DNA of 20,000 bases from an uncultured virus (IMG/VR IMGVR_UViG_3300030108_000125) (IMGVR_UViG_3300030108_000125:47529-67528); one strand, 5' to 3'. Positions 3,001 to 20,000 are shown, numbered from the stretch's first letter. Made by a program: numbers and translations. The notes: generated by a model from the letters alone, not told the origin.

Positions 3001-5296
3001 CAGCAGGAGTTGAAATAACACCAGTGCCATCATCACGAAGAAACCCACGATCTTCATTAACATCTTGCGAGTATGCAGCATAAGTACCCGGACCACGTGC
3101 TTTCTGAAACTCTAAAACCTCCTCGACTGTCATATCCGTAAGTGTAACCCCAAAGTTACTTTCTTGGTTGCCTAGCAAGCGATCATAACCACCTGCATCA
3201 GACGTACCCTCAACTTCAGAAACACGTTGTTTAACGTTATCCATCAGGGCTTCTCTTAACCCTGCGCCAAGATCATCAACTGCAGTAATGTCGTAGCCAA
3301 GTTTTATTAAATCTGCTATTCTACTGTATGTATCTGTTAAGCTATCCCTATTCATATTTATAACAGCAAATGCGGGCTGACCCTCTTCCCTCATTAAACG
3401 ATTAATTGTTTGCTGTGTCGATGTTGCGGTATTGTCTGCTATTGTTTTGTCTGTCCACCGTAGTTTAAACTTACCATCTTGGTCTCTTACAGGCATTGTC
3501 ACGGCGTTCCCAGCAGCTATGTCACTAAGAGTTACCCCCTCATCAAATATATAGTTATCTGGGTCTATAATTGCGTTATTTATATCTGGGTTAATTGCAG
3601 ATGCCCTAGTCTCAATCTCCCGTAATATATTATCCCCAATCCTAATAAGATCATCAGGGCCAGTTAAAGAAGCAAAATTTGGTACTTCTTCCTCTAAATA
3701 TTCTATGGCAGCGGCAATTTGTTCTGGATTTAAAAATCTATAATCAACACCATTAGCGTTAAGTGTTTGTTCTAATACATTACTATGCGTATCTCGTAAC
3801 GCTCTTTTTAAGTCGGTATCTAATGCCAAACCTTGGTTTCTAAAATAATGTTCGTAAACTTCGTCTTCACTATCCAACCCGTGTATTGCCGCATAAACCG
3901 CTTTATCAAATTTTGGACCTGCTTGGTCCGTAATAGCGTTTGTTAAAGCTAAGGCTGTGGCAACAGTTTCATTATGCACCTCTTCTACACTTGGAAACTC
4001 GTCACCTAAATCATCTATGTCAGTCAACATACTTTTTAAGGCTGTGTCATAGGCACTAGTAAGCCCGGGTAGTGTGGGCGCTATTTCGTTATACGTGCTT
4101 AAAAACTCTGCCTTGGCATCGGCGTTATCATTGCTATAAGTTGTAAAAGCTGTGCCTGCTGCATTAACTGCGTCAAGATTTGTTTGATTTTTGTTTGCAT
4201 TATAGGTATCTACTGCTTCTGTATATAATTGGTACAGCCGATCTTCTTCATTATATATAGCTGTGTACCCATTAGCAGCATTAGTAGCATTGGTTCGCGC
4301 AGCTTGTAGGGTTTCAAAAGCCTCTGTTGCCCTACCTTTATTACCAAACAACGTATCTAACTTATCGTTTAGAGCCAAACCTTCAGAAGAATCTATAAAA
4401 TCTCGTATTTGAGTGTCTGCCTGTGTTTTAAGATTTGCAAAAAACGCGTCAGTTGGCTCTAAACCACCCTCAATAGCAGCGTTTAAACTAGAGTTTAGGC
4501 CTTCTCCGATAACACGCACCATGTCATCACCAAAAGTGTCTCCCAAACTTTTTTGTAAATCAGATAAGATTTCTATGTTGTTGGTATACCCACTAACTAA
4601 GTTTCGTAGGGCATCTTCTGTTATATTTCCACCTTGAACGGCAGCAACTATACCCGCAGTGGCGCTATCTCTTATTCCTGCGCCTAAATTAGTCCAAGCA
4701 CCATCTTCGCCAATGGTATTAATTAAAGTGTCATCTATAGCGCCTAATGTGTAACCTATTCCCGAAGCAAGGTTACCTGTTAAAAACGCGTTAGATGCAG
4801 CCTCAAAATTAAAACTACCATCAGCAGGATTAAACGAATGTATTAAAGTAGTAGAAAATTGCTCCGTGCCACCAATAATTGCAGTAGATAGAGGAGAGGA
4901 AGCAACCGCTTCACCAAAATTTTGAGTTAACGCTGTGCTGGCTTGGTTACTAACTACCTCTCCAACTTTACCACCTGCATACGTTAAAGCCATGCTTGTA
5001 ATTATATCTTCTGCAGAGCCGCCTCTGTACGCGGTAGAAGCACCTTGATTAAGCGCTAAAGCTAGTGGCCCTCCAAACCCTGTCACTAGTAATGCTGCTG
5101 TACCAACTGTACCAAACGGGTCTTCTACAATAGCTGCGGCTATATCTTCTGCTGTAGCGTTAAAGTCTAATTCTAACGCTTCGCCTTCGTCGAACGGATT
5201 CAAATCAATAGTGTCATAATTACGAGTGGCATAGTACACTTCATGCTCAAGACCACCAAGTATATCTATATCACTAAAATCTATGTTGCCGCACAT
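1..5296 (-). CDS. Giant putative internal virion/DNA-ejection protein (>1765 aa, 3'-truncated at window edge) with a lambda-lysozyme-like domain and 46-aa repeats
   Basis: ATG at 5296-5294 directly follows the TAG of the upstream gene (5299-5297). Translation begins MCGNIDFSDIDILGGLEHEVYY. The same frame was open where I checked it at ~2580-2760 and at 1-300 (...DDPNTTDIDESKEATGLYASVENSLAEAV). No stop-terminated ORF in this frame is in the ORF track, consistent with it running off the edge. It has Gly/Ala-rich hydrophobic stretches, acidic helical regions and the motif STPAGKYQVVGRTLQGLV, and lies after nozzle-like and gp13-like genes. Confidence 0.88.
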   Translation of the reverse strand, partial: MCGNIDFSDIDILGGLEHEVYYATRNYDTIDLNPFDEGEALELDFNATAEDIAAAIVEDPFGTVGTAALLVTGFGGPLALALNQGASTAYRGGSAEDIITSMALTYAGGKVGEVVSNQASTALTQNFGEAVASSPLSTAIIGGTEQFSTTLIHSFNPADGSFNFEAASNAFLTGNLASGIGYTLGAIDDTLINTIGEDGAWTNLGAGIRDSATAGIVAAVQGGNITEDALRNLVSGYTNNIEILSDLQKSLGDTFGDDMVRVIGEGLNSSLNAAIEGGLEPTDAFFANLKTQADTQIRDFIDSSEGLALNDKLDTLFGNKGRATEAFETLQAARTNATNAANGYTAIYNEEDRLYQLYTEAVDTYNANKNQTNLDAVNAAGTAFTTYSNDNADAKAEFLSTYNEIAPTLPGLTSAYDTALKSMLTDIDDLGDEFPSVEEVHNETVATALALTNAITDQAGPKFDKAVYAAIHGLDSEDEVYEHYFRNQGLALDTDLKRALRDTHSNVLEQTLNANGVDYRFLNPEQIAAAIEYLEEEVPNFASLTGPDDLIRIGDNILREIETRASAINPDINNAIIDPDNYIFDEGVTLSDIAAGNAVTMPVRDQDGKFKLRWTDKTIADNTATSTQQTINRLMREEGQPAFAVINMNRDSLTDTYSRIADLIKLGYDITAVDDLGAGLREALMDNVKQRVSEVEGTSDAGGYDRLLGNQESNFGVTLTDMTVEEVLEFQKARGPGTYAAYSQDVNEDRGFLRDDGTGVISTPAGKYQVVGRTLQGLVDAGVVNLDDTYNEETQEKIGSYLIEQRGLFDSNISAEQFVENLGNEFEGIARFGYESADSGTSIAMREDVISSLGLNVPVIETENITYTFADLQRIRAEKDAHTPLIMSMNKEDGAAFDAQVGGNVYQNLTKLANMFGYVPAAGGEERFKEFEEMFSNVASVVTGAFGEVANVVSVALDYGGAEGASEFTKEMSQDLLSFSNSAKSDQWLAQGEENAQRYNNLIAEWEADNPGQELTNAQKGLLKTEAIFTNIQDAPVQWVAENIGGEIIQEFFTLGFGAAAKFGTSVFLRGAKKADITDMGDNLISTIENTAGVGGAVAADIGEAYFATVDGAYDQAYAVAINQGFTEEDADAYASELAIKNGTVAAVLTTVASGLGGAALAKSIFNPKNSEITNRAIDGLEVTFKEGVTEGFEEGFTSAHLASSLVQIDPNYDVAGDIVEAGILGTLIGGGTAGGIYTGDFLIDSLIQGNEDVRNALNSADPTVARDALVNLGLTDVDRLNTMLNTSYDEFIVTTDEVGQIIAEANPDFTADADTIASYVGERSEADTKAEIEQFVGDNYVTEEEVDTAATAAGITLTDEEKAQYVGQSANETSLTTFAEDVEAAKGEIVSFFEENNYDPTDAQVNNFLDGLTLTDARKEAISSYIDPRQITEAEARQFFSDLGYEPSEEEIESYVGQNTDDTVRGPRRTRKPFESYVRDNIATYVDPRQTTEAEVRAAFEAAGFTPTDEQVQQFVGQLDQTRQETAVGEFIDPLQTTRDEVVAAFDAAGFTATDEEIDSFVGQLNQADQELKISDYIDPLQTTKTEVEAAFAAAGYTPTEAEIERFVGQLEQTAQETAIGDYVDPRLATDAEIRAAFAAAGFTPTDEEVALFTGQFDQETQEAGVADYVDPRQVTTAEIRAAYEALGLVDVLQEDVDRFTGQRDEAAALEELRQYAPTATLNIVNQVIGSPAVEDDPNTTDIDESKEATGLYASVENSLAEAV
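150..1020 (-). repeat. Intragenic tandem repeat, 138 bp / 46 aa period
   Basis: The Pro codon of the (Y/F)(V/I)DP(R/L)Q anchor is at 278, 416, 554, 692 and 830 (exactly 138 bp apart) and at 1010 (180 bp). Consensus is about YVDPRQTTxAEVRAAFxAAGFTPTDEEIxxFVGQLDQxxQETAIxD. Confidence 0.92.
2810..3260 (-). other. Lambda-R-like lysozyme/lytic transglycosylase domain inside the giant ORF
   Basis: RVSEVEGTSDAGGYDRLLG...MTVEEVLEFQK...STPAGKYQVVGRTLQGLV...YNEETQEKIGSYLIEQRG...LGNEFEGI parallels recalled lambda R motifs (SEG with catalytic Glu, STAAGRYQ, SQDAVALQQIKERG, IWASL). Confidence 0.75.
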
Positions 5297-5719
5297 CTAT
5301 CTACCCTCTTGGACGTTTACGGTAACAAATAACAAACCTGTGTCTTTAACTTTTCGTATCTCCATAGGATATCGTCTACCAATAATTGGTGCGACAGGCA
5401 TTAAATTTTCATTTTCAGCCGTAAATTTTAACACAGCTACCTTTCTTTGTTTTATTTTAGCTAAATAATCTAACATGTTTTTTAACATATTTTTGGGGGT
5501 ATCTGCATTATACATTACTACAAAAGCTACAAGCATGCCTTTTTTATTTTTTCTAACAGGTATAGTTATAAAAACAGTATTTCCAAACTGATCTATTACT
5601 GCGTTTTTATTGTCACTTAATATAGAAGCTGTTTGTAATTGCGCCCCCATACTTTGATTAGGATTACCCATACTCTCAATGCCCTTAGCAATGACAGTGG
5701 GTATGTCCATCTGTCCCAT
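5297..5719 (-). CDS. Hypothetical protein, possibly a degenerate GNAT-fold/T7 gp13-like assembly protein
   Basis: 140-aa ORF coupled at both ends (TAATG at 5719; TAG abutting the next ATG). Alternating beta/alpha pattern (QFGNTVFITI...FVVMYNADTPKNMLKNMLDYL). Position immediately before the ejection-like gene. The function is inferred. Confidence 0.7.
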   Translation of the reverse strand: MGQMDIPTVIAKGIESMGNPNQSMGAQLQTASILSDNKNAVIDQFGNTVFITIPVRKNKKGMLVAFVVMYNADTPKNMLKNMLDYLAKIKQRKVAVLKFTAENENLMPVAPIIGRRYPMEIRKVKDTGLLFVTVNVQEGR

Positions 5720-6039
5720 TATGTGACCTCAAGAATACTTGCTACTACGTGTAACCTATTAGCAGTAGCGGCGGTAACCTTTAGTATTTCTTCGGCTTGT
5801 ACAATTAGTGGTGCCGATAGAAGCTCTAACGTGTTATTAGCAGACACAGCTTTAGTCTTAAATAAACTAAATACATCTGACCCGCTGGTAATCGTCAGGG
5901 TAATCGTGTCGGCGTTGCCACTATCTTCAGAAACAAGAATAGATTTGACAATGCCAGTTGTAGACGCAGCACAGGTGTAAAGCGTGGTTATGTTAGTAGT
6001 GGTTAGGTCCACCTTTGCGTTTACATATGTGTTTGCCAT
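5719..6039 (-). CDS. Small beta-rich putative virion structural protein (106 aa)
   Basis: MANTYVNAKVDLTTTNITTLYTC...LHVVASILEVT. The ATG at 6039 overlaps the upstream TAA (TAATG), so it is preferred over the longer 6054 start in the track. Confidence 0.8.
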   Translation of the reverse strand: MANTYVNAKVDLTTTNITTLYTCAASTTGIVKSILVSEDSGNADTITLTITSGSDVFSLFKTKAVSANNTLELLSAPLIVQAEEILKVTAATANRLHVVASILEVT

Positions 6040-6227
6040 TAACTTAAAAACCACCCTATTGCATCGGTTTGATTTGCCAGTGATCTATCACGTAACGTAT
6101 TATCGACTTGAGTAAAATACAGGCGAAGCACTTTATTAAACTGCTCAAACTCAAATGCAGAATACTCTTCAGGTGGGTATGGCAGGGCAGGAGCCACAAA
6201 TCCTACGGTATAATCGTTACTAGCCAT
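6039..6227 (-). CDS. Small hypothetical phage protein (62 aa) following the nozzle-like gene
   Basis: TAATG overlaps at both ends. APALPYPPEEYS...NKVLRLYFTQVDN is a Pro-rich segment followed by an amphipathic helix. Confidence 0.78.
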   Translation of the reverse strand: MASNDYTVGFVAPALPYPPEEYSAFEFEQFNKVLRLYFTQVDNTLRDRSLANQTDAIGWFLS

Positions 6228-8371
6228 TACCGTCTCCCGTCTGGACGCATATCAAGGCGTGGTGCGCCTAGCTGCCACTGTACTCCTGTGGTGCTGGAAT
6301 CTACCTTCAAAGACATTTGTCTGCCTCTAACCCTAGTGTGTATTTGTTCTGTGTACACGTCTACAGGTGAACTTGCTGACCGTACAACTGTACCTGAGTT
6401 TACACCGCTTTCTGATGCGGGGCTGTTTCTGCCAGAGCCTGATGAGTTAAGAGGAAACAACGTCATGGTTATTGTAGGTGTGTCACCTGTAGACCCCTCA
6501 AAAGACACATCAGGAAACATCCTAGACACAAGAGCAAACTGATGTCCGTCCTCTAAGTCAAACTGTGCAGATGTAATAGATGCAGTAATAGCTGCAGGTG
6601 TTCCTGTCTCGTTATCGTCAATACCGTTTTCATGGTCCACAAGCACAGAGTTATACGTGGCTGCAAGAGGAAAACTTCTAAGACCGGAATCTAGCCATGC
6701 AGTGCGTGCCATGTTTCCATAGTACCAGATATCTTCTAGGTAATTGTATATAACATACCGATCTATGTTAGATGAAGCCGCAGAGCAGTAGAACCACCAT
6801 ACTTCATGGAACGCTTCGTTACTGCCACCAAACACCTGTACATACTGCAGGTCATTAAAGTCTGTAAATATGTACTTTCTAAGATCACAACGCAGTGGCT
6901 GCACCCGACCATCGTATTTGTAAAACTTATCCTTGCCCATCCAGTACGAAACACCATTAGCGTAGGCCACAGCATTCTGAGACGCGATAGAAGTCTGTTC
7001 ACCCACAATCGTAGCACCCCATACACCAGACCCTGCACCCACATACTGCAGAGAATAAAGTGAAGAATCGGTCCAAACCAAAACTTCTTGTCGTGCCTGT
7101 TGTGCAGCTACAATTTCCGTACCCCGTGACAAACGAAGACTACCTGCCTGTGTAGTTGCAGTGGGTGTCCAATTTACCGCGCTTTCTTGGTCAGACCACC
7201 GGATCAACATAGGGTCTTTGGACGAACTACCTAATATGTTAGTACCAAAACAGAACACAAATCTGTTAATGTCTGATACAAGAACGTTGTTAACAACTGT
7301 TGGCACATTAGAGGCACCAGCTAATGAAGTAAGTTCTACTGCACGTGTAGCAAGGTCGCCACTGGCTGCAGACGCATCCCAATAATATAAACGTCCGTTA
7401 CGGTGCGCGAATATTAAGTCTTCACCAAAGTTTTGCTGTGACCATACACGCAACGCTTCTGTATCAGACTCGCCCTGACCCCAAGCACCTGATCCCCAAC
7501 CACTAGCACCCCAGCCAACAAGTGGGTTAGCAGAAGATGCACCTGAGTTTATTTGATATGTGCCAACAACAGAGCTACCACCGTTTCCTGAGTCCGAACT
7601 AGTGCCAGCAACACTAGTATACGATGCGTTTGTTATAGTTTCTACGCTAAAGCTTTTACCTAATATAATGTAGTTGTTTGCATCTACGACTTCTTCTATT
7701 TGGTATTCTTGGTTGAGTATACTGGCAACTAGATTGCCACCAAGAGATACTGCATCACTAAACGTAACAAAGTCATTTTTCTTGGCTCCATGACTGTTGT
7801 CGGTCACTGTAATGCTAAAACAATTTACAGCTACCCCATCACTGTGCGATGCTGCTGTAGATGCTGTAGATGTACCCGCAACCAAGGAAGAAGCACCTCT
7901 AGTACAACCTGTTAATGTATTACTGCTAATAGCTGAGTAATCTATAACTTCACTATCTATGATAATCTTCCCTGCTTGAGGAAATCCAGTAGTGTCAGCC
8001 AGTGTTATAGTTGTAATGGAAGCGTTTATTGCACCATTCAAAGTAGAAGCCACTGCACTAAATGTAACATCGCCTGCACTAGTGGTTTCTCGTAGCGGCG
8101 TTATATCGTTAAACCCACCACCATTTTCTATGTAAAACTTTAAGTGTGTGCCAACACCCACTAGGTTCTGACTGCCCAGTGTAATCCAGTTAAGAAGTGA
8201 CCGCGCAAGTCCGAGGAATGTAGCCTCTGATATACGTGTCCAACCACCGATCTTTTCAGGTGAGCCTTGCCTAAATCTTATGTTATCAGACTCAAACCAA
8301 CCACCCTCGTTAGTATAACGAGTGTTTTCTCTATTTACACCAGATTTAAAAACTACCTTTTTTAGGGGCAT
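6227..8371 (-). CDS. Tail nozzle / DNA-stabilisation-like protein (P22 gp10 / T7 gp12-like), copy B
   Basis: 714 aa. N-terminus GVNRENTRYTNEGGWFESDNIRFRQGSPEKIGGW. Trp-rich beta-propeller-like segments (LIRWSDQE, AGSLRLSRGTEIVAA, VSYWMGKDKFYKYDG, EVWWFY). C-terminus RVRGRQMSLKV...RLDMRPDGRR. Resembles nozzle-like proteins I recall from marine podoviruses. Confidence 0.75.
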   Translation of the reverse strand: MPLKKVVFKSGVNRENTRYTNEGGWFESDNIRFRQGSPEKIGGWTRISEATFLGLARSLLNWITLGSQNLVGVGTHLKFYIENGGGFNDITPLRETTSAGDVTFSAVASTLNGAINASITTITLADTTGFPQAGKIIIDSEVIDYSAISSNTLTGCTRGASSLVAGTSTASTAASHSDGVAVNCFSITVTDNSHGAKKNDFVTFSDAVSLGGNLVASILNQEYQIEEVVDANNYIILGKSFSVETITNASYTSVAGTSSDSGNGGSSVVGTYQINSGASSANPLVGWGASGWGSGAWGQGESDTEALRVWSQQNFGEDLIFAHRNGRLYYWDASAASGDLATRAVELTSLAGASNVPTVVNNVLVSDINRFVFCFGTNILGSSSKDPMLIRWSDQESAVNWTPTATTQAGSLRLSRGTEIVAAQQARQEVLVWTDSSLYSLQYVGAGSGVWGATIVGEQTSIASQNAVAYANGVSYWMGKDKFYKYDGRVQPLRCDLRKYIFTDFNDLQYVQVFGGSNEAFHEVWWFYCSAASSNIDRYVIYNYLEDIWYYGNMARTAWLDSGLRSFPLAATYNSVLVDHENGIDDNETGTPAAITASITSAQFDLEDGHQFALVSRMFPDVSFEGSTGDTPTITMTLFPLNSSGSGRNSPASESGVNSGTVVRSASSPVDVYTEQIHTRVRGRQMSLKVDSSTTGVQWQLGAPRLDMRPDGRR

Positions 8372-8373
8372 GA

Positions 8374-8826
8374 CTAATCCATAAGTTCAAAGTGAGGTCC
8401 ATCTATAAAAGGTCTACGACCTTGTGATCTGCGAAGATCGACATAAGAGTTCATAGCATTTTCCATTGTGTCGTTCCAAGTGCGAATGTCATCAATGTGC
8501 CATGCTGCACCCCAGCGCACAGGGCAGCCTACTACAGAAGCAGCTTCTTTAATGGCGTCCGCAAGATCATCGTACAGATTTAACTCCCAACTTGCACGTC
8601 CATTTACATACGCCATAATGTCTATGGCTTTACCTACAAGATGTTTAGACTTCATTGTTTGACTAGCGCCCTTGGCTACCAACTCTTTTTGTTGGGCCTC
8701 AGTTCTCATGCCTTGGATCACGCCAAAATCAGTTTTAGTCAATGTAATAGCTTGTTTGGCTACGGCTTGCAGCCTTTCATCAACACCTTCTAACCTATCA
8801 AGGCTACGTCTACTTAATTTAAACAT
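8374..8826 (-). CDS. Endolysin, peptidase M15 family (L-Ala-D-Glu peptidase-like, Zn-dependent)
   Basis: FKLSRRSLDRLEGV...DFGVIQGMRT...SKHLVGKAID (HxxxxxxD Zn motif)...RWGAAW...FIDGPHFEL (DxxH). The start is probably ATG 8826 (GGAG upstream); 8841 is an alternative. Confidence 0.92.
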   Translation of the reverse strand: MFKLSRRSLDRLEGVDERLQAVAKQAITLTKTDFGVIQGMRTEAQQKELVAKGASQTMKSKHLVGKAIDIMAYVNGRASWELNLYDDLADAIKEAASVVGCPVRWGAAWHIDDIRTWNDTMENAMNSYVDLRRSQGRRPFIDGPHFELMD

Positions 8827-9016
8827 CTGTTCCATCTCCAAAAAGTTTTACACACCGCCAAGAAACAATATTATAATTTGGATAACGTTGCCTCACAATA
8901 TTTACCCCATAAGCACTTATAGACAATTCACACATTTCCTTGTTTGGAAACACGGGACTGCCTATGGACATACAATTTCCTTCTGTACATACTAAAAAGA
9001 TTGCAGCCCATATCAC
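8819..9016 (-). CDS. Small Cys-containing protein with hydrophobic N-terminus (65 aa)
   Basis: MIWAAIFLVCTEGNC...FPNKEMCE...WRC. ATGA overlap with the upstream gene at 9013-9016. Confidence 0.75.
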   Translation of the reverse strand: MIWAAIFLVCTEGNCMSIGSPVFPNKEMCELSISAYGVNIVRQRYPNYNIVSWRCVKLFGDGTDV

Positions 9017-9339
9017 TTTTTCTTCGCCATACCCGTAAACGTTTCTCTTGGTAAAGCATAATCCTTCATTATTCTCCGAACCTCTGGCTCAGAAATATTT
9101 AAAGCAATAGAAATATTGCACACATCCATACCATTACGTGCCAGTCGATCAAGTTTTCTTCCAAAATTAGTAAGGGGACGATCCTTTGGCAAAACAGAAG
9201 AAAACTTCTTTTTCTTCTCATCCTCTTTTAATCTTAATCTAGGATCAATCGCCGCATCTCTTTTACGTTGTGCGTCCCATGCCTTCCGATACAAATCTTC
9301 GTATTCGATGCGTTTTGCCTCTTTTAAACAAGCGTCCAT
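9013..9339 (-). CDS. Basic hypothetical protein with a possible C-terminal helix-turn-helix
   Basis: 108 aa, coupled at both ends. LARNGMDVCNISIALNISEPEVRRIMKDY fits an HTH pattern. Confidence 0.7.
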   Translation of the reverse strand: MDACLKEAKRIEYEDLYRKAWDAQRKRDAAIDPRLRLKEDEKKKKFSSVLPKDRPLTNFGRKLDRLARNGMDVCNISIALNISEPEVRRIMKDYALPRETFTGMAKKK

Positions 9340-9797
9340 TATGGTTTTACTTTCATGTATTTGCTGACTGCGCGGTTCCCAAACCAGAACGACATAATAG
9401 CAGCAAACAATCCTGCCGTTGCGTCATCCCATATTAAACTAAGAGCGCGGCCCAAGTCGTGTCCGACATTAAGCAAAGCTAATAACGCTGTTACTTTAAT
9501 GGCAACGAAAAGGCCAAAAAAACAATAAGTAATGACAGGGCGGACAGAACCTCGAAGTGCGTTAATAAAACCTCCCGCATCAATTGAATCATGCCTATAC
9601 AGCCCCTCTGTTTCTTTTATGTCAGCCTCTTTGTCCATAATGCTAAGTTTTAATTCAGCACGTTTGGACATCAGGTCCATTTCAAGCTGTGCTCTTTCAA
9701 GCTCGTGTTTATGTTCTTGGTTTGCTTTAAAATAGTTAAGGACTTCGGGTAAGAAAGAAGTACCGAAGCCAAGCAAACTACCTAATAGTGTAATCAT
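9339..9797 (-). CDS. Putative holin (resembles the 3-TM GTA-type holin family)
   Basis: Hydrophobic N-terminus, a coiled coil, RGSVRPVITYCFFGLFVAIKV (TM) and GLFAAIMSFWFGNRA (TM), with a basic tail. AAGGA RBS upstream. Lies near the endolysin. Confidence 0.7.
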   Translation of the reverse strand: MITLLGSLLGFGTSFLPEVLNYFKANQEHKHELERAQLEMDLMSKRAELKLSIMDKEADIKETEGLYRHDSIDAGGFINALRGSVRPVITYCFFGLFVAIKVTALLALLNVGHDLGRALSLIWDDATAGLFAAIMSFWFGNRAVSKYMKVKP

Positions 9798-9809
9798 TTC
9801 TTTTTCCTT

Positions 9810-10031
9810 TTAGTCCCAGAACTTGGTTTCTTTCGGGAAGAACTTTGGTTCGCAGTGCGCTTTGATTTTGCTGCTGCGGTAGTAGTTGTTTTTGTAGGTG
9901 TAGATGTGGCCTGTTTTTTCAACTTCTCTTGCAAAGTAGGCACATCTATGGATGTCTCTGAACGCCGCCACGCCCCCAATGTCCAACTCTTTATTGTCGA
10001 TATACACGACCAACAAAAATCCAAGAACCAT
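9810..10031 (-). CDS. Small protein with hydrophobic N-terminus and two Cys (73 aa)
   Basis: MVLGFLLVVYID...FRDIHRCAYFA...AHCEPK has the same architecture as 8819..9016. Confidence 0.72.
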   Translation of the reverse strand: MVLGFLLVVYIDNKELDIGGVAAFRDIHRCAYFAREVEKTGHIYTYKNNYYRSSKIKAHCEPKFFPKETKFWD

Positions 10032-10032
10032 T

Positions 10033-10233
10033 TCATTTTTCTGAACCTAGCCAGACTGCTATCGTCCCTGTCATAGCCCCGCTAACCACTGAAATCATAG
10101 CAGATTGCTGTGTTGACAAGTCATCAAGGCTCATCCCCCAATTTATAACTTTGATGTACATAATCGTCATCACAAGCATCATTAGTCGGGGCATCAATTT
10201 ATATTGGAGTATTTTTTCAAAAGTGTTTGTCAC
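10033..10233 (-). CDS. Small two-TM membrane protein (66 aa)
   Basis: Hydrophobic segments LMPRLMMLVMTIMYIKVINW and AMISVVSGAMTGTIAVWL. Tightly packed in the operon. Confidence 0.75.
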   Translation of the reverse strand: MTNTFEKILQYKLMPRLMMLVMTIMYIKVINWGMSLDDLSTQQSAMISVVSGAMTGTIAVWLGSEK

Positions 10234-10234
10234 A

Positions 10235-10471
10235 TTACACCTCTATATCGACACTAGAACCCTGTGGTTGTTCTATAGCCTTTCTTTCGCCTAACCTATC
10301 ATAACTATGGGCTAAAGCAACCTGTTGCTGTTCTACGGCTTTTTGCTGCTTATGGACGCGCTGGTGCTCACGTTGAATATTTTGTTGTGCTTGTTGGCTC
10401 TCAATACTACGTTGAGTTTTTTGAACCTCTGATAACACAGAAAACTCAGACTTTCCTACCATACTAACCAT
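10235..10471 (-). CDS. Gln-rich hypothetical protein (78 aa)
   Basis: Fills the gap between neighbours with an 8-nt overlap upstream. Coiled-coil-like Q-rich core ending YDRLGE...GSSVDIEV. Confidence 0.7.
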   Translation of the reverse strand: MVSMVGKSEFSVLSEVQKTQRSIESQQAQQNIQREHQRVHKQQKAVEQQQVALAHSYDRLGERKAIEQPQGSSVDIEV

Positions 10472-10940
10472 TTGCTGTCCTCATCAACCAAACAAAGACA
10501 AATAACCCTCCAACCAAAACCAAAAATAAAACAATACCTGCTACCCACTCAGTAATAGCTTGTTTTATTTCCATACGTCTAAATTCATGCTCTCGTTTTT
10601 TCTTGCGTATTTCAGCCTCTATTCGTAGAAACTCTTGCCAGTGAGACGGACCAAGGATTGCTGGGTGCGATATTATTTCACGTAACTCATCGCGCATTTG
10701 TTTTGCCTTTTTGCGAGCTAAAAAAACTTCCATAGCTTGCGCTTGTACACCGCCCCCGAGAGCTTTGTACCAAGGCGGTCTTTCAATCATCTTTTCTGCT
10801 TGGTCGATGTCAGCCATGCAGCCAGCCCACTGCTGTAACTGTTGGCCCATGTCTTGAAGGTCACGTCCAACTTGAACGCCCTTTTTCATAAAGTTAAAAG
10901 CTGCGGTAGCGCCCGCTATAGCGGTCATAGGGTCTATCAT
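10464..10940 (-). CDS. Hypothetical membrane-anchored coiled-coil protein (158 aa)
   Basis: MIDPMTAIAGATAAF N-terminus, helical core, and C-terminal TM WVAGIVLFLVLVGGLFVFVWLM. Confidence 0.82.
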   Translation of the reverse strand: MIDPMTAIAGATAAFNFMKKGVQVGRDLQDMGQQLQQWAGCMADIDQAEKMIERPPWYKALGGGVQAQAMEVFLARKKAKQMRDELREIISHPAILGPSHWQEFLRIEAEIRKKKREHEFRRMEIKQAITEWVAGIVLFLVLVGGLFVFVWLMRTANG

Positions 10941-10949
10941 AGATCATGC

Positions 10950-11183
10950 CTACCGTTCCATTAAACGATCTATTTTTTCTTCTAGCCTGTCAAACCTATC
11001 CATAACACGATCCATAACCGTATTATTTTCTACTTTACTAACATACTCTTTTGCTAATTCTTCACGTGTTTTATTAAGTAAAATACGGACGCGCCCAAGT
11101 TCGTCGTGTTGGCTTTTTAACCACCAACCTAGACCACCTATTGCGGCGGTCAGTCCCACGTTTATGAGCGCGTCCATTTCCAT
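10950..11183 (-). CDS. Small N-terminal TM plus coiled-coil protein (77 aa)
   Basis: LINVGLTAAIGGLGWWL followed by RFDRLEEKIDRL. TAATG coupling at 11183. Confidence 0.8.
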   Translation of the reverse strand: MEMDALINVGLTAAIGGLGWWLKSQHDELGRVRILLNKTREELAKEYVSKVENNTVMDRVMDRFDRLEEKIDRLMER

Positions 11184-11407
11184 TATTCTGCTGCTATATC
11201 CTCTGGTGGTTCTTCTAAAGTCTTTGTCAACATTTCCATAAAGGCTTGCTTGCCTACCTGTAATTGGTCAAGGTTAAACTGCGTAGAACTGATCTTACGA
11301 TCTAAATCAGTAATGTGGTTAATCATTACCTTCTGTTGATCTGTTAGTTGGTCTTCAGTATATTCTTTGTCGTTAATCGTGATGGATTTTGTTTGTTTCT
11401 CAGCCAT
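11183..11407 (-). CDS. Small hypothetical protein (74 aa)
   Basis: Strong RBS (AAGGAG) upstream. ITINDKEYTEDQLTDQQK followed by a coiled coil. Confidence 0.85.
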   Translation of the reverse strand: MAEKQTKSITINDKEYTEDQLTDQQKVMINHITDLDRKISSTQFNLDQLQVGKQAFMEMLTKTLEEPPEDIAAE

Positions 11408-11430
11408 CGTGATCTCCTTCTAGGTTAAAA

Positions 11431-11745
11431 TTAAGCGGCCCAAGGTCGTCCGCTCATGGTGGGTGGGTTTTTAAGATTATCTATGCCTTTCTTTAGATTT
11501 GCTTCCGTCACGTCTTTGTCTACCTGCGCTTGCACCCAAGCAATGCAGTTAGCTTCTGTAACACTCTCGTAAGCAGTGAAGTTACTGTCTGATGGATCAG
11601 GTGTGTGGCTAGTCGTGCCATAGCTGCTTACAGAGTGATCGCCATCTTTTGCGACGCATCGCCAGTGCAGCCTTTGTATACCTTTGCTTCCACTTGCGGT
11701 TTCATATTCGGTATTACTTACTGTCCATGTGTATTCGATTGCCAT
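11431..11745 (-). CDS. Hypothetical tail-fibre-associated protein (104 aa)
   Basis: Starts 2 nt after the fibre stop. YTWTV...LHWRC...FTAYESVTEANCIAWV...GRPW is a pattern I recall downstream of S74 fibres in marine phages. Confidence 0.82.
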   Translation of the reverse strand: MAIEYTWTVSNTEYETASGSKGIQRLHWRCVAKDGDHSVSSYGTTSHTPDPSDSNFTAYESVTEANCIAWVQAQVDKDVTEANLKKGIDNLKNPPTMSGRPWAA

Positions 11746-11747
11746 TT

Positions 11748-14677
11748 TTATGCTCCTTCTAATGCGGCTATACGAGCTTCTAATGCTTCATTCTTAGCTA
11801 TAGATTCTTTAAGTGCAGCAGTAAGTAAAGGTATGACATCTGTGTAAGATAGATACAATTTGTCCGTTACACCTGTTTTATCTTCTACATTAGGATCATT
11901 TTCTATTACGCTAACCGCCTCTGGTAAAACAGCTTTGACATCTTGAGCAATTAAAAATGGATGTAAAACTTTTTGTGAGTCATCATTATAATGACCCATT
12001 TTTGTTCTGAGTGTTTTTACTTTATCTATGGCATTTTCAATATCACCAGTTAAAGTTTTTAATCTTTCATCAGACGCAGAAGTCCAACTTGTTGCGGCGT
12101 CGCTTAAATTGACCCCTCCTGATGATCCTGCACGAATACGAAACCCTCCATTGGGAGAGGAGATATAGTTTAAGCCAGAGCGAGTATAAGCCAGTTCATT
12201 ACCTGTACCTGAGGCACAAATGGCCCCTACACTTCCACCAATTCTAAATTGACCTGCATTAGTTGCAGAACCTGTTTGAGTGTTAGCAGGATATGAACTT
12301 GGGTCAGTATCATTAATACCAACTGCACCGCCGCTGTCGACGCGCATACGTTCCGTATTATTAGTAGCAAAAACCACTGGTTTTTCACCACGATTACCAA
12401 TTTCAAGGGCATTTAAACCAAAACCTTCAATTCGCGCCGAATAAGCAGACCCAGACCAACCAGTAAAATTACCTGCAGTATAAATATATAGATTTTCAGA
12501 AGAACTTGTTGTACGTGTGACTTGTATTCCATTTATCCCTGCCCCATTTGAGGCTGGAGCAGCAGCATTGTCACCTAGAACAGTAAGTCGTGAGGGTGGG
12601 TCGTTATCTGCGATCCCCACGTTGCCAGAGCTATCTATTCTTGCATACTCACTTGAACCATCTGCATTGTCGAACGTGTATGTTCCACCACGCATAACAA
12701 AGTCTTCTTTAGCATACAGCCTTAGATCGTCTTCAGCCTGAATTGTCATGTCGTCTGTGCTATGATCAAATTCTATTGATCCTGCTTTTCGAGCATCCGC
12801 AGAGCCACTGTTATCTGCAAAATATATCCTACTTGTTCCTGACGTGCCTGTTCGTATTGCAATACCAGCAGATGATACACTGCTTGAACCAATAACAAGA
12901 CCTGCACCAGAACCTGTAATGTCAGTATAAGTAAAGTCACCACCAGTTCCGATTCCCACGTCACCCGTTGACCTTATGCGCATACGTTCCGTTGGAGAAT
13001 CTGAGCCATCAGCAGTAGTCGAAAATACTAACCTTCCTGGCATGTCAGTAGCATCATCTGCTGGCGTACCATCTACCTGTGCTTCAATCCTTGCAGCTTG
13101 TTCAAAATCAGTTCCATCACTTCCATAGAAAGCAATAGCACCCAGTTGATCGTTATCATTAACAACAGTGTGAGAACCTTTAGTTGTATTTCTACTATGT
13201 CCTAAAGATATATTTGCTCCGTCTGATCCATTTCTGTAGGTAGCAAAAGATGCAAGACTGAAATTAGTGTCTGAAACTTGTAACTCATGGCTTTCAGCAT
13301 TAAAATTAACACTAGAAGAATGTCCAATAAGTAATTCTCCGTTGCTGTCGAGGCGCATACGCTCAGACGAACCAGTAGCAAAACGAATGTCTTCTGCCCG
13401 AAAGCCCATTGGTTTCAAGGCTGAACCAGCAGAATTAGTTGTTTGAAATGCTAGATTACCACTTCCAACTTCACTAATTGCATCGTTGATTGTTAGCTTC
13501 GCATCCGTGCCAGACGTTACACTAACATCACCGCCAAACGTAGCACCTGCGTTAAACGTAGCAGCCCCAGCCTCAGACATATCAAGGGTCAAGGCAGTTA
13601 CGGTTCCACCACCATCATTACCTTTAAATATTAAATCTTTATCTGAAACAGCACTAAATAAAACAACATTTTGACTATCTTGACTAAATGTAAAAAGTGT
13701 TGTTGCATTATCTTTAAAACGCCAGTTACCACCATCAGCATCAAGAATAATGTCATTACCAGAATCAATATAAAGATCAGAATCATTTTCTATATTCAAG
13801 TCACCAGTGGTATTTTTTACAAAACTATGACTACCATTATGATATAATTTTAAATCACTACCTGCACCTAGAGCTAGCTCACCTGAATCTGGCAATTTAA
13901 CATCATGGTTAAACGTAGCTGTCCCTGCATCACTCATATCAAGTGTAAGAGCAGTTACATTAGCTCCACCATCATTGCCTCGAAATACCATGTCTCCATC
14001 TTGGACAATAGAGTACAGTTGAAAGTCATTAGTATCTCTTCTTAATAGACCATAAAAAGTGCCACCATCATGAAGTTGAATTCTTCCATTATCTTCAGCA
14101 TCAAGAATAATATCGTCAGCTACATCAATTGTCAGATCACCACTAGCTGTTTTATTTGTGAGAGCATCCGCAGCGACGCCAAAACTTCCTATTTGTACAC
14201 GTTCAGTTCCACCAGTGGTAAAACCTATCGTATCACTTGCTGATTTAAACATGCCTGTGTTTGTGTCGCCACTAAAAGTAAAGCTAGGTGTTGAACTCCC
14301 ACCAGTGCTTGCTGTGACGGTGCCTGTAGAGACTAATGCTCCAGCAATAGTAGTAATAGAATTTGTACCATTACCAATAGTTACATCTATTTCATCCTCT
14401 GCATTACCATCGGTTATTATAAGACCGTTTTGCATCTCCCCATCATGGGAAGCAATTTGAAGTCTTAGTTTACCACCTTCAGCACCGTCAGAAGCATCTG
14501 CAACCTCTGCACGAATTAATGCAAATTTAGTCTGTTCTTGGGCATCATTATCAGCAAAAAACTCTATTGTACCAATATCATCATCATCAGCGCCAGCAGC
14601 ACCTTTGTCTTTTACAAAACGAAGCCTCGCAGCATTAGCGTCATTAGTTGTGTCTTTGATAATTATTAAGGGGTCTT
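11748..14677 (-). CDS. Tail fibre, C-terminal part, with peptidase S74-type intramolecular chaperone
   Basis: Repeated ERMRxDSxGxVGI modules. C-terminus SDERLK...LIAQDVKAVLPEAV...LSYTDVIPLLTAALKE...LEARIAALE (about 11751-12074). The 5' end abuts an N gap, so the track's 14696 start is not real. Confidence 0.88.
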
Positions 14678-14687
14678 NNNNNNNNNN
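14678..14687. other. Assembly gap (10 N)
   Basis: Run of 10 N; the reading frame changes across it. Confidence 0.99.
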
Positions 14688-16464
14688 TTGTAACATCTAG
14701 ATTAGTCGTACCGTCTACGTCTATATCGCCAGAGATATCTAACTCTGTGCCAATTAGTTTTTGTGTTAATGTCACTACACCATCAGACGCAATAGCTATA
14801 GCATCAGTATCACTAGCTGAACCAATAGTACCACCATCTTTAATTACTAGATCATCTGCAATAGTAAGCAGACCTGCAGAGCTTAGTGTCATCTTAGCAG
14901 TAGCACTAGCAGCAGCAGTTTCAGATGCACCAGTGGTAAAAACTAATTTAGTAGAGTTAACACTAGAGGTAAACTCTGCTTCTGCTATGGCATGAATACC
15001 TGCAGCCACAGTAGCGGCATCTGTTCCACTGTCATCCCCTGCAGCAAACTCAATAGAACCAATAACTTCATTTGCAGTGATTTCGTTTTCTTCAGATTTA
15101 AGTTGTAATACTGTAGGTGTATTATCTCCTGTATTAGTATTAGTAACTGTCAAACCTGTATCGTGCACATGAGTAATTGTAATCTCATCGTTTGCACCAA
15201 AAGCTATTGTAGCACCGTCATGCTGTAACTCTAAGTCTTGAGTAAGTGTAACATCACCGTCAGAACCTATAGCTATAGCATCAGTATCACTAGCTGAACC
15301 TATATTACCTGCATCAGGTATGACTATGTTACCACCCGTAGTCATAAGACCACCACCAGTGTATGTACCACTTACGTCTAGGTTAGCGTTAACATCTACA
15401 AGTGTAGCATTAAGTTCTATTTCATCTGTTGCATCAATGTCAAGTGTTGTTGCATTAGGAGCACCTATCTTTTGACTTGCATCGTTAAACTGAATAACAC
15501 TAGTGCTATTAAGAAGTAACCCTGTATCAGCTACGTGTGTAAGTGTGACATCATTATCTGCACCAAAGTTAAGCACTGCTGCATCATGTTTTAAGTGCAA
15601 GTCATTAGTTAAATTAACATCCTGATTTGCATCTACGGTCATGGCAGTGCTACCACCTGTAGCTACAGTAATAACATCAGAACCGCTAAACGTAATACTT
15701 GTGTTTGTATCTCCATCTCCTGCAATACTATCAAGCTGAACTGCACCTACGTTACTTAGTGCCGCATCTCCAAAGTCTACTGCACCAGCTACTGTAAGTG
15801 TGCCTGATACCTCTACATTTGCATTTANNNNNNNNNNTGTAGCACTAGGGGCGTTAATAAACTGAGAGGCATCATTGAACTGCAACGCCATTGTGCTATT
15901 AAGAAGTAAACCTGTATCTGCAACATGCGTTAGTGTAACATCGCTGTCAGCACCAAACGAAAGGACAGAGCTATCTGATATAAGTCTGAGGTCATCTCCT
16001 ACTGATAAGTCAGCAGCTACACCTGCGCCACCTGCTACAGTTAAAGCACCTGTAGTAGCACTAGAGCTTGCCGTAGTAGCTGTTACCGCAACGACACCAC
16101 CGCTTGATATAGTTATAGCGTTTGTATCACTAGCAGAACCAATGGAACCTGCATCATCAATTACAATAGTTCCTGTTGTAAGTGCACCGTCAAAAAAAGC
16201 ATCTTTAAATAATAGAGAAGAAGTACCTAAGTCTAATGTATTAGTTGTTTTAGGAGTAACTGTTGTAGCGCTAACAACGAAGTCTTGCGCTGGGCCTAAT
16301 ACAGTAACAGGCCCACCCTCTGCAGATGTGCCATCGTGTGTGTGTCCACTGGTAGAGAAAGCTGTTACAATTGCATCAAACTCTCCATCAAAGTCTGCTG
16401 CGTTAATAACGTTACCATCAGCAATGTTATTGTCTGTATCGTTTCTTGTGTAACCTGTTCCCAT
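14688..16464 (-). CDS. Tail fibre, N-terminal part (virion-anchoring domain plus repeats)
   Basis: MGTGYTRND...FDGEFDAIVTAFSTSGHTHDG starts 4 nt after the nozzle-like gene. Gly/Thr/Asp-rich repeats. Contains the N gap 15828-15837 and ends at the N gap 14678-14687. Confidence 0.85.
15828..15837. other. Assembly gap (10 N)
   Basis: Run of 10 N inside a repeated tail-fibre module. Confidence 0.99.
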
Positions 16465-16468
16465 TGTA

Positions 16469-18637
16469 CTACCTTCTTGTGTTTGTGCCGTACTCTAATG
16501 TCACCGTGTCAAGTGAAAAAGGTGGGTCTTGACTGTCACTTCTAAATTGAATTGCTGTTGTAAATCCTGTGCCTACTGTTTGAGTGTTAAATAAGTTCTG
16601 AACTTTACCTCCGAAAGTAGAACCTGCGTTTGTTATTCTAACACTACTTATTGTTTCTGTCAAGGCGTTACTTATAGTTATTGTTGTACTATCTATATTA
16701 GTTATAGTAGTTCCGCTTGGTATGCCTGTGCCAGCAATACTATCTCCTACTTCCATATTAGTATTAGCTGCTACAGTTATACTTGTTGCACCGCTAGATC
16801 CTGATCCTGTTGTTGCAAACTTGGCGTATGTTTGTACACCAAAGAAAGCTATCTGTGATACTGTGTTTGTAAAGTCAATAGCTGCAGGTTGCACAGAATT
16901 TAATTCGTCAAAGTCAAACTTTAAATTAAACTTAAAATTAACTGCCCCTTGTGGATCTGTAAACAAGTTAGCTTTGTAAATTGTTTTACGCACTCTTGGG
17001 TCGTTTAGTGGTAAAAACGGAGATAGATATTCTGCTTCTATATTAGAGCCATCAAAGCTATTACCGTCTTCCATCTGATAAAGAAAACCATTATCTGAAG
17101 AGAATAATATTTTTTCAGTTGCCCCTACCATCTTACTATTAGCAGAGAAAACTCTTATACCTCGTATCTCTGCAAACTGAAAGTCTGCACCTCCCTGTGG
17201 CGAAAACTGTGTAGCAACTACTCCTTTTGCTGCATCGTCTTGCTGTCCTGCAACATAAGAAAACAATCTGTATTGCGACTTAGCTCTAACAACTAAACTA
17301 GAAAAAGAGTTACCTGTTCTAATAAAATCTCCTAGTGTGCTCTGTATAGATTTAGAAACAATACCTAAACCAAAGTCACCAATACGATCAGTAGCACCTA
17401 AGAGCCTTAAACCATCAGCAGTGAGAAACATAACATCCCCACCTATCTCTTGTATGCTATCACCATCAATACAACCAATATCTTCACTTATAGGTTTTAA
17501 TACAAAGTCAGACAGTGTGCTACCAGATATTTGTTGTATAGTCTTGTCTGTGAATATTATAAGAGATTCTCTAAATACTATTAGACCTGTAACATTACCA
17601 CCAACTCTAAAGCTACCAGCACCATTTCCAGAAGTAAAATCGTTATCTAATAATGGGCCTGTAAATGTAACCACATCATTTTTACCAAAAAATAAGTGTG
17701 TTTTAAAACTAGTTACATGTGTTGCAGATATAACATCTGAGGGTGCTCCTGTTAGTTCTACAAAACTAGTGCCATTATATAGTGCAGGTGGATTAGCTGC
17801 ATCAACTATTGCAACTTTACGTGTTCCTGTGAAGTTATATTCTGCAAAGCGTGTCTTTCCTGCACCCTCTCTATTTAAACTAATAAATGTTACAGCAGCA
17901 TTATCAGCAGGAGTAGAAGCTAGATTAGGAGCTATAGCTAAGGTTTGACCACCAGTGCCTCCTGCAGCAGAAGTAACAGTGTATACTTTGTCAAGACCAG
18001 CTACTGTAAATATATCACCTGCTTGTGGTGCTACAGTCAATCCATCTACAGCTAAGTTACCACCTGAGTTAGACCCACCGTTTACTAATACAGTGCCATA
18101 TGCAGGGACGTTAATTTTAGTAAAGCCATCACCTGATGTTTTATATAAGTCTGAGTTTAGTGCAACTAAAACATCATCACCAAAAACTTCTACACCTTGT
18201 GTTTTGTATGCGGTAGCGTATGTCTTAAATGTTAAAGCTGCTGCATTTGCAGGACTAGAATCTAATGCAGGACTTATAGTAAGTGCTGTTGTGTTATTAG
18301 TAGCGTTAAAACTAACAGCACCTATAGTGTATGTTCCATCTATTCCTGCTACTGTAAATGTATCTCCTACAACAGGAGTAGTGTGCGTTCTTGAAACATT
18401 TAGCGTTGTGCCTGTTTGACTTGCACCATTAACAACTGCTAGTCCATAAGGTGGTATTTTGTTTGGATCAAACTTAGAGAACCCAAGTATTCGTCTGTAT
18501 CCACCTACAATAGAAGGCTCAAAGTTTGTTAGTCTAATTGCAGAGCCAGGCATGTTAAGACCCTGCTGCAAGGGACTAAGGTTTGTTACAAGCCCTCCTT
18601 TAATCTCAACAGGAAATGTTTGTCTTTTAGTTGGCAT
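16469..18637 (-). CDS. Tail nozzle / tail tubular B / stabilisation-like protein, copy A
   Basis: 722 aa between the adaptor-like gene and the fibre. GGLVTNLSP...NFEPSIVGGYRRILGF N-terminus. Propeller-like motifs FKTHLFFG, VTGLIVFRESLIIF and IGCIDGDSIQEIGGDVMFLTADGLR. Confidence 0.78.
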   Translation of the reverse strand: MPTKRQTFPVEIKGGLVTNLSPLQQGLNMPGSAIRLTNFEPSIVGGYRRILGFSKFDPNKIPPYGLAVVNGASQTGTTLNVSRTHTTPVVGDTFTVAGIDGTYTIGAVSFNATNNTTALTISPALDSSPANAAALTFKTYATAYKTQGVEVFGDDVLVALNSDLYKTSGDGFTKINVPAYGTVLVNGGSNSGGNLAVDGLTVAPQAGDIFTVAGLDKVYTVTSAAGGTGGQTLAIAPNLASTPADNAAVTFISLNREGAGKTRFAEYNFTGTRKVAIVDAANPPALYNGTSFVELTGAPSDVISATHVTSFKTHLFFGKNDVVTFTGPLLDNDFTSGNGAGSFRVGGNVTGLIVFRESLIIFTDKTIQQISGSTLSDFVLKPISEDIGCIDGDSIQEIGGDVMFLTADGLRLLGATDRIGDFGLGIVSKSIQSTLGDFIRTGNSFSSLVVRAKSQYRLFSYVAGQQDDAAKGVVATQFSPQGGADFQFAEIRGIRVFSANSKMVGATEKILFSSDNGFLYQMEDGNSFDGSNIEAEYLSPFLPLNDPRVRKTIYKANLFTDPQGAVNFKFNLKFDFDELNSVQPAAIDFTNTVSQIAFFGVQTYAKFATTGSGSSGATSITVAANTNMEVGDSIAGTGIPSGTTITNIDSTTITISNALTETISSVRITNAGSTFGGKVQNLFNTQTVGTGFTTAIQFRSDSQDPPFSLDTVTLEYGTNTRR

Positions 18638-18640
18638 GTT

Positions 18641-19585
18641 TTACAAAACCCTGCTAGGTAACATCTTTGTATTTAGAGTTCTAACATTAACAACACTTGA
18701 CCTAATGTAGTCGTATCTGTTTATGTAAAGAGTACGCATATGTTTAATGCCATCCTCAAATGCTTCTTTTAGAACAAGAGCTTCTTGTGTTTCACCTCTA
18801 AACATATAACTTGTGTACATTGCACCATCAACGATTACGTATCTAAACTGCACAGGTAAACTAGGTACATCTGTTGCAGAAGATAAATCAGTTGGTAGCT
18901 TGAAGTAGTCAAACTGTAAGACATATTGTTTGTCAGGATAAGGGTACAGTAAGTAATTATTGTCAGGTGTTCTTACTATAGCTCTAGGAGATTCACCCTC
19001 AGAAAACTGTGTTACTGTTGTGCTATTAGCTATAGCTGCTGCTGTTGTGCTGTTAGCACCTCTAGTGCATCCTGTAAAGTCATTGCCAGATATACCTGTG
19101 TAAGTAATCTGCTCACCGCCTATATGCAGTGTTCCTGTTGAAGAAAAATCTGTAGTGGATGCAACAGTTATTGTTGTTACAGAAGCAGACAAACCAGAGG
19201 AAGCGTTGACAGTTGTAGATACAATGTCATCCTCTTGGTTTGCGTAATCTCTTGAGATGTATTCTTTGTAGTCTAGTATATCTAAACTATTGCCTAGTGA
19301 GTTTAAATCTGTGTCTTTTTTAATTCTAGCTGTAGAGTAATCCACAGACTTTGCATCTGTAGGTATTGAATATCTTACAACACCTGGTGTAAGTGTTTTT
19401 GTTTCTGTGTCGTGATTAAACGGAAAGCCAAATTCGTGTTGATTAATATACCTTATAGATGAGTTAATAGCATCTTTTACCATTGCATATTCACCAATGG
19501 CAGAGTCAAAATTACTAGATGTAAGTTCTACTTCGTTTAGTCTTCTGTTAACATCGTTGACTAAACCTAGATAATTATATGCCAT
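18641..19585 (-). CDS. Head-to-tail adaptor / tail tubular A-like protein with an inserted beta domain
   Basis: MAYNYLGLVNDVNRRLNE helical start, then VKDAINSSIRYINQHEFGFPF and LYPYPDKQYVLQFDYF...LPVQFRYVIVDGA. AAGGA RBS. Lies upstream of the nozzle-like gene. Confidence 0.78.
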   Translation of the reverse strand: MAYNYLGLVNDVNRRLNEVELTSSNFDSAIGEYAMVKDAINSSIRYINQHEFGFPFNHDTETKTLTPGVVRYSIPTDAKSVDYSTARIKKDTDLNSLGNSLDILDYKEYISRDYANQEDDIVSTTVNASSGLSASVTTITVASTTDFSSTGTLHIGGEQITYTGISGNDFTGCTRGANSTTAAAIANSTTVTQFSEGESPRAIVRTPDNNYLLYPYPDKQYVLQFDYFKLPTDLSSATDVPSLPVQFRYVIVDGAMYTSYMFRGETQEALVLKEAFEDGIKHMRTLYINRYDYIRSSVVNVRTLNTKMLPSRVL

Positions 19586-19610
19586 TATAATATCCTTGGT
19601 AAGTTGTTTA

Positions 19611-19635
19611 AGGGGCCAGCGCTGGGCCAGCCCCT
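19611..19635 (-). terminator. GC-rich intergenic stem-loop (weak terminator or mRNA-stabilising hairpin)
   Basis: Minus-strand AGGGGCTGGC-CCAGC-GCTGGCCCCT gives a 10-bp stem with two G:U pairs, 7 nt after the upstream stop. There is no long U tract. Confidence 0.5.
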
Positions 19636-19642
19636 AAAGTAG

Positions 19643-20000
19643 TTATGCGAGTAGATCACGATCCACTTCGTTAGCAGAGCCAGACTGTGAGACATCATCC
19701 ATCAATACGCATACTGCGTAAACACGAATAATACCACCAGTGATGGTTCCACCTGACGCATGAATCTCTACGTCAATAGTATCTGCTGATGCAGTAAATA
19801 CAGGTAAGTTAGAACATACACCTGACGATGTGATAGCAGGAGTATGATCCCCTACTGATGCACCATCAAGGTCAAATGATGCAGCAAAGATGTCTACATC
19901 TGTTCCTGTAATACCGACATGGATAGCAGAGTCAGTGGTAGTACCTGCCATTGCAGTGACAACTTTAAATCCTGCATGTAGGATCAAAGTGTTTGCAGGG
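19643..20000 (-). CDS. 5'-truncated beta-rich protein, putative capsid decoration/minor structural protein
   Basis: The frame is open to the window edge (PANTLILHAGFKVVTA...). All-beta pattern. Followed by a hairpin and then the adaptor-like gene. The function is inferred from position. Confidence 0.65.
   Translation of the reverse strand, partial: PANTLILHAGFKVVTAMAGTTTDSAIHVGITGTDVDIFAASFDLDGASVGDHTPAITSSGVCSNLPVFTASADTIDVEIHASGGTITGGIIRVYAVCVLMDDVSQSGSANEVDRDLLA

Follow-up and report, generated by a model that had tools for sequence, protein, structure and literature searches.

Two groups of marine podoviruses resemble the two parts of this record. In HMO-2011 (gp45-gp44-gp43) and CRP-345 (gp52-gp51-gp50), a capsid-adjacent gene is followed by an adaptor, a nozzle, and a fibre, and Table 2 of PMC4819975 names HMO-2011 gp44 tubular tail B. 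In HTVC023P, CRP-901, CRP-902, and DSL-LC04, with genomes of ~60 kb, the order is capsid, adaptor(s), fibre, small genes, lysin, nozzle, and ejection genes. Features of the phage groups were taken from PMC9038755 and PMC10149686. The roseophages CRP-9 and CRP-13 are described (PMC8528129) as genuine recombinants that unite an HMO-2011-type structural module with genes of another podovirus group; there the replication module was exchanged and the structural module is single, whereas here the structural genes would be doubled. Two genes that each encode part of a nozzle fold are reported in the genomes of PhiXacm4-11 (gp30/gp31) and phiRIO-1 (gp44/gp40) in 10.64898/2026.02.16.706137 and PMC4819975. 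Those genes are halves of one nozzle, whereas here a complete nozzle of a separate lineage is encoded by each gene. That viral contigs can be chimeric has been described as a problem (PMC11727651). In the De Bruijn repeat chimera, which yields a lasso-shaped viral contig, the contig start is repeated internally, the loop is a complete genome, and the stem has another GC content and redundant structural genes; we found no substantial difference between this type and the record.

The contig (L001) is 67,528 bases long, and the window analysed here is its final 20 kb (Table 1). We think it very likely that assembly made this record a chimera of two phage genomes. Contig bases 1-60,374 hold the complete genome of a podovirus (phage A), which closes into a circle and has its own single nozzle, and window positions 12925-20000 are a 7-kb tail-region piece of an HMO-2011-type phage (phage B) with its own nozzle. 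The two proteins would be ordinary podovirus nozzles from two genomes, and a dual-nozzle phage is very probably not a biological reality.

Phage A has the gene order of the HTVC023P/CRP-901/CRP-902/DSL-LC04 group, to which its nozzle is 33-36% and its capsid 58-71% identical. A homologous capsid and tail module was found against HTVC023P/HTVC027P (capsid 63-66%, nozzle 33-35%). The best 15 of 1,940 matches of the phage A polymerase were Rhizobium and Pseudomonas phages (<=37%); HTVC023P was not among these 15, and phage A is at most a candidate member of the HTVC023P type. On the phage B side, the window has the HMO-2011-type tail order, and HMO-2011-type nozzles are 36-53% identical to that of phage B, which is longer (722 vs 502 aa) through beta-sandwich inserts. 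In contrast to complete HMO-2011-type genomes, just 7 kb is present in the contig, the group-defining polymerase is absent from it, and capsid and portal were seen by proxy in a locus (L027) with 98% DNA identity. The polymerase of one relative (G001) has two CXXC motifs and a PF00684 match (E 1.5e-5) that is under the cut-off; PF00684 had no match in the relatives G002, G003, G000, and G007.

Table 1. Features of the window, in order of position (-, minus strand)
Feature	Position	Strand	Details
Phage A large protein	2..5296	-	2,165 aa in contig, extends beyond window; ejection-module position
Three small phage A genes	5297..6227	-	140, 111, and 62 aa
Phage A nozzle/tail hub, 714 aa (nozzle A)	6227..8371	-	phrog_3287 E 4e-66; profile, Foldseek, and VIA matches
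Endolysin, Peptidase M15	8374..8841	-	phrog_465 E 7e-51; PF13539 E 1e-6
Mobile small-gene cassette, ~ten ORFs of 65-158 aa	8819..11745	-	Between fibre and endolysin
Fibre C-terminal part with Peptidase_S74 chaperone	11748..12846	-	PF13884 E 9e-9
78-bp exact repeat of contig bases 1-78	12847..12924		Phage A circle closure; very likely chimeric junction
Stem: second tail fibre, N-terminal and middle part	12925..16464	-	Single frame at bridged gap lengths
10-N gap 1	14678..14687		Inside a fibre repeat of high copy number; bridging contigs have 60 letters
10-N gap 2	15828..15837		55 letters from joints of all four runs
Phage B nozzle (tubular tail B), HMO-2011-type, 722 aa (nozzle B)	16469..18637	-	Homology, fold, position
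Phage B adaptor, 314 aa	18641..19585	-	PF24175 SU10_adaptor E 6e-18; phrog_10775 E 4e-38
Cut gene, after major capsid gene in phage B relatives	19643..20000	-	98% DNA identity to L027; contig end

Identity of the two nozzle proteins

Both ORFs, named nozzle A and nozzle B, are real and nozzle- or hub-like by fold searches and homology. There was no detectable sequence similarity between them (best BLASTP E 2.6), and a profile-profile comparison (hhalign) gave a probability of 0.5% and an E value of 0.11 over 40 columns. The original prediction of two ~720-aa ORFs lacking mutual similarity was correct in its coordinates, and the gene order is as it described: adaptor, nozzle B, and fibre on the stem side, and endolysin, nozzle A, small genes, and a large protein in ejection position on the phage A side (PF24175 for the adaptor, Peptidase M15 for the endolysin). 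Its reading of both proteins as nozzle-like agrees with the results that follow.

A nozzle A profile built from 48 sequences matched (hmmsearch) the Pa223 tail hub 9nwi_Y (E 1e-18) and the VP1 nozzle gp16 (E 4e-10). The chain 9nwi_Y agrees in length and copy number with the Pa223 tail hub gp59 of 10.1101/2025.06.11.659172. The predicted model of nozzle A has a moderate pLDDT (60.9). Its top Foldseek matches were nozzles and hubs (E 3e-17), including P22 gp10 and T7 gp12, the two proteins that had been proposed for comparison. In the VIA search the top five matches were all hubs or nozzles, aligned over residues 1-714 (Z 12.8, rmsd 5.6, 403 aligned). By both searches, the predicted model has a beta-propeller with an N- and C-terminal platform.

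The nozzle B model has a pLDDT of 67.6, with residues 1-51, 559-604, and 672-711 under 50; the termini, where a platform domain would lie, are thus poorly modelled. All nine of its best Foldseek matches were phage tail chains. VIA ranked 9nwi_Y first (Z 20.7, rmsd 3.8, 299 aligned), with GP4 at Z 19.7 and generic WD40 propellers next (Z 18-19), and placed a beta-propeller in the predicted model. A nozzle B profile searched against PDB sequences found no nozzle match and just weak distal-tail matches (E 0.01 or worse). The identity of nozzle B also draws on homology and position: tblastn matched CRP-345 (53%) and HMO-2011 gp44 (YP_008320306, E 4e-61), and the gene sits between a PF24175 adaptor, directly upstream, and a fibre. 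Each nozzle would be the usual hub under the adaptor ring of its own virion, as is established for homologues.

The original prediction had attributed a single nozzle or hub protein to T7-like and P22-like podoviruses, and the two ORFs could in principle be complementary subunits of one split nozzle, as PhiXacm4-11 gp30/gp31 or phiRIO-1 gp44/gp40 are. Such nozzles exist (10.64898/2026.02.16.706137 and PMC4819975), but each model here aligns with the whole propeller of the same hub, and each gene occurs independently of the other in near-complete genomes and isolates. This reading was rejected as extremely improbable.

The PHROG label "amidase" for nozzle B was also dropped because fold, homology, and position disagree with it. 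PHROG 5107 and some GenBank records call the nozzle B family "amidase" or "nonribosomal peptide synthetase", which looks like propagated misannotation. Nozzle B has an insert resembling the T5 pb9 B-domain (PF21430), and its full-length relatives span 658 to 1,018 aa, which suggests that the family may gain and lose inserts of this kind. A small inserted beta domain is common to nozzle A (aa 107-176) and the phage B adaptor (aa 122-193), at 44% identity (E 2e-12), and is matched by baseplate and virion-protein PHROGs as well. From these sequence matches, it may be a mobile decoration domain present in two different tail proteins.

Closure of the phage A circle and the attached stem

The first 78 bases of the contig recur exactly at contig 60375-60452, and the two copies are 94.6% alike over 147 bp before they diverge. 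When bases 1-60,374 are closed, the fibre ORF at contig 1-3398 joins the fibre end at 11748-12846 in frame, giving a fibre of 1,498 aa with a Peptidase_S74 chaperone at its end; the same fibre end is also in frame with the stem fibre. The circle contains terminase, portal, major capsid, two adaptor-family genes, lysis genes, nozzle A, large genes in ejection position, polymerase, helicase, and primase. Its portal, capsid, and two adaptors come in addition to the stem adaptor. The size is in line with complete relatives of 55-62 kb, and GC content is 44.0% in the circle vs 39.5% in the stem. The contig is thus lasso-shaped, with its start repeated internally and a loop that closes as a full genome.

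A contig from public run X3 (record 14, 2,960 nt) lies on 11455-12993 and then departs. If it follows the phage A circle, 1,392 nt precede the repeat and 1,568 nt come after it, which adds up exactly to 2,960. A loose end of 214 letters in X3 begins with 30 letters that match contig 1355 exactly, and it therefore ends at 1568. This fit is arithmetic on lengths together with a single motif of 30 letters, and the source sample may be X3 itself.

Relatives have the circular order. One N-free contig (L210) is 94.8% identical over 3,904 bases to contig 6814-2911 and then has a different fibre body; after the fibre it is 85.8% identical to the small-gene cassette and 94.4% identical to the endolysin and nozzle A. 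It joins the phage A adaptors to nozzle A without the stem. The isolates CRP-902 and DSL-LC04 have the same gene order as the circle. Among 280 loci (limited in three scans to the best 80 of a larger set), 120 have nozzle A, 28 have nozzle B, and one has both; these loci have flanks of <=10 kb and include near-duplicates, so the counts are non-independent. In the same set, 30 of the 120 nozzle A loci extend to an adaptor-block gene, and all 30 of these genes are A-type. Nozzle B was absent from five A-type records that are 98-100% complete and from four further A-type records, and nozzle A was absent from five B-type records, two of them >90% complete; both profiles matched all of their controls (5/5 each).

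On the other side, a locus with 98% DNA identity to 18237-20000 (L027) carries the stem on into its own head genes, with capsid, scaffold-position, PF23899 portal, and terminase-position genes upstream and a capsid 72-79% identical to those of CRP-9, CRP-13, CRP-1, and HMO-2011. A stem continued in this way would duplicate the phage A head genes. In eight B-type loci (L014, L016, L018, L020, L024, L026, L290, and L291) the fibre is followed by small genes without nozzle A and, where the loci are long enough, by B-type large genes.

The two lineages have near-identical fibre modules in common, most likely through horizontal exchange. The shared stretch would have given two entries in the assembly graph, and the assembler may have come in from the phage B fibre, passed through the shared stretch, gone once round phage A, and stopped on reaching the same 78 bases again. 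The repeat is k+1 bases long for k=77, and SPAdes scaffolds typically have 10-N gaps; both points suggest SPAdes as the assembler. The B-side join was examined at the level of run contigs. At least one molecule must have carried the repeat together with B-side sequence, and either a shared block or a rare hybrid therefore exists. An exact pattern derived from the repeat had no matches in viral contigs, and a second exact pattern had two metagenome matches, both of 27 bp, in long contigs without phage homologues. A protein scan with the fibre end found just distant relatives (best segments 24-60%) and no copy of the contig allele.

The alternative is a real recombinant or cointegrate, in which a single crossover in the shared fibre would put the phage B head, adaptor, nozzle, and fibre genes before the phage A lysis, nozzle, ejection, and replication genes. 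The reading frame does run on from the stem fibre through the junction into the fibre end, one crossover joining two circles would produce a lasso path of this kind, and exchanges of modules between HMO-2011-type phages and other podoviruses have been described (PMC8528129). The phage A circle closes on its own, however, and the contig as written therefore carries two head-tail sets; in the published hybrids (PMC8528129) modules are replaced, not duplicated. Contig depths in run X1, which are weak evidence, fit a minor haplotype that leaves before nozzle A. We consider such a recombinant very unlikely, and the suggestion of redundant or alternative hubs in one phage finds little support.

The one locus of the 280 with both nozzle types (L019; with the same limit to the best 80 in three scans) bears on the same question as another record with the order B-nozzle, fibre, A-nozzle (L019:1311-8911). 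Up to ~7230-7320, this locus and four siblings are almost the same; there it departs, and the siblings (99.9%) continue instead to B-type small and ejection-position genes. Its right part starts within the fibre and is 87% like an A-type locus (L114), and its A-type nozzle motif stands behind A-type adaptors in 11 of 13 other loci, with the remaining two too short upstream. L019 is most simply a second chimera through the shared module. That the two records are independent captures of real, rare hybrids with two complete unrelated nozzles, generated by crossovers in shared fibre and small-gene modules between HMO-2011-type and HTVC023P/CRP-901-like podoviruses, deserves little credence. Were it true, a podovirus with two whole nozzles would be without precedent in what a limited literature search found, and it would allow the interchangeability of tail parts to be probed. 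That search for two-nozzle podoviruses found just the split nozzle of 10.64898/2026.02.16.706137, which does not imply absence from print.

Under the preferred reading as a chimera, the junction matters for annotation. It has no N and is in frame, and it is therefore invisible to gene calling. The record is rated 100% complete and passes as a complete virus, yet 7 kb of it come from another phage; cutting the contig at base 60,374 restores the complete circular genome. The near-identical fibre and small-gene modules in two abundant marine podovirus lineages hint at overlapping hosts and are a known type of mosaicism.

Other genes of phage A were noted. Two genes of the SU10-adaptor family (L001:3840-4481 and L001:4825-5511; PF24175 E 2e-19 and 8e-12) are barely alike in sequence and are kept together in relatives. 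Pa223 forms two adaptor rings from a single gene (10.1101/2025.06.11.659172), and the phage A lineage may build two adaptor rings from two genes. A gene for a GroES-like co-chaperonin (L001:12376-12756, phrog_3188) adjoins the portal. The 2,165-aa protein had no PHROG match; its homologues come after nozzle A in relatives, as do the 111- and 62-aa genes in most of them, and it has imperfect C-terminal repeats and is highly variable among relatives.

N gaps and the site of the switch

Contigs, not reads, from four of 24 listed public runs (X1, X3, X5, and X9) were compared with window 5001-20000, giving at least 31 listed pieces on the window and 419 more. Gap 1 is bridged in X1, X3, and X5, with just two differences in one X5 contig (record 19), and gap 2 is bridged at joints in the four runs and also spanned by L004 and L006. 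At the bridged lengths the stem fibre reads through 1,604 codons in a single frame as far as 11748. Both gaps are thus bridged in frame and neither is the required join, which is the shared, N-free fibre repeat at 12847-12924. The original prediction had seen two podovirus lineages joined in the fibre region, with a mis-scaffold at an N gap at least as likely as a real recombinant. The lineages, an HMO-2011-type stem and an HTVC023P/CRP-901-like circle, and the preference for an artefact stand; the site of the required join is not at an N gap.

The start of the stem fibre is 82-98% identical to fibres of the B lineage, and the switch to B-lineage DNA is probably at 12925. A second stitch at 14678-14687 is possible because gap 1 lies in a fibre repeat of both lineages. 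This repeat has a contig depth of 130 in X1 and 46 in X3 and several loose ends; it is 89% like the fibre of phage A itself and is present in an A-type locus (L289, 94%) and a B-type locus (L290). The records that bridge gap 1 stay within the repeat, so 12925-14350 may derive from a third phage, and the best relatives of the middle part of the stem are both A-type (60%) and B-type (55-58%). These observations speak for a variant of the chimera, counted within its overall probability, in which the switch is at gap 1 and 12925-14677 is an alternative fibre allele from an A-type or third phage. The in-frame bridge in three runs argues against this variant, as does third-position GC, which is 0.19 in 12927-14675, like the stem (0.18-0.23) and unlike the phage A fibre start (0.32). 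We regard it as the less likely site, though one to be kept in mind.

Depths of the X1 contigs are 24.5 on nozzle A, 28-33 on the cassette (8987-12317), and 6.1 on the first piece of the stem (12909-13593). Their sum fits a minor haplotype that has the cassette and the end of the fibre in common and departs before nozzle A, but such depths are weak evidence, and the cassette occurs in many other phages. Contig cover in X5 is 4-8 on the stem and almost none on nozzle A, and in X9 it is absent at 12501-13500. These holes were left uncounted because holes in contig cover prove nothing.

Fibre tip and small-gene cassette

Third-position GC is 0.21 in the fibre end (11748-12846), 0.20 in the stem, and 0.32 in the phage A fibre start (P 1e-4), hinting that phage A may have taken its fibre tip from a low-GC lineage. 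A codon log-odds classifier, which is weak (0.01-0.12 per codon), disagrees and places the fibre end as slightly A-like.

The cassette at 8819-11745 is up to 100% identical in the conspecific L210 and is found in many other gene contexts. For one of its genes (152 aa), identity is 93-99% in loci that have it between portal and capsid genes or behind the nozzle, and 81% where it precedes an HMO-2011-type portal. Judged by these contexts, the small-gene and lysis cassette (8374-11745) is highly mobile. The closest relatives of phage A by nozzle (L029 and L030) have a different endolysin (52%).
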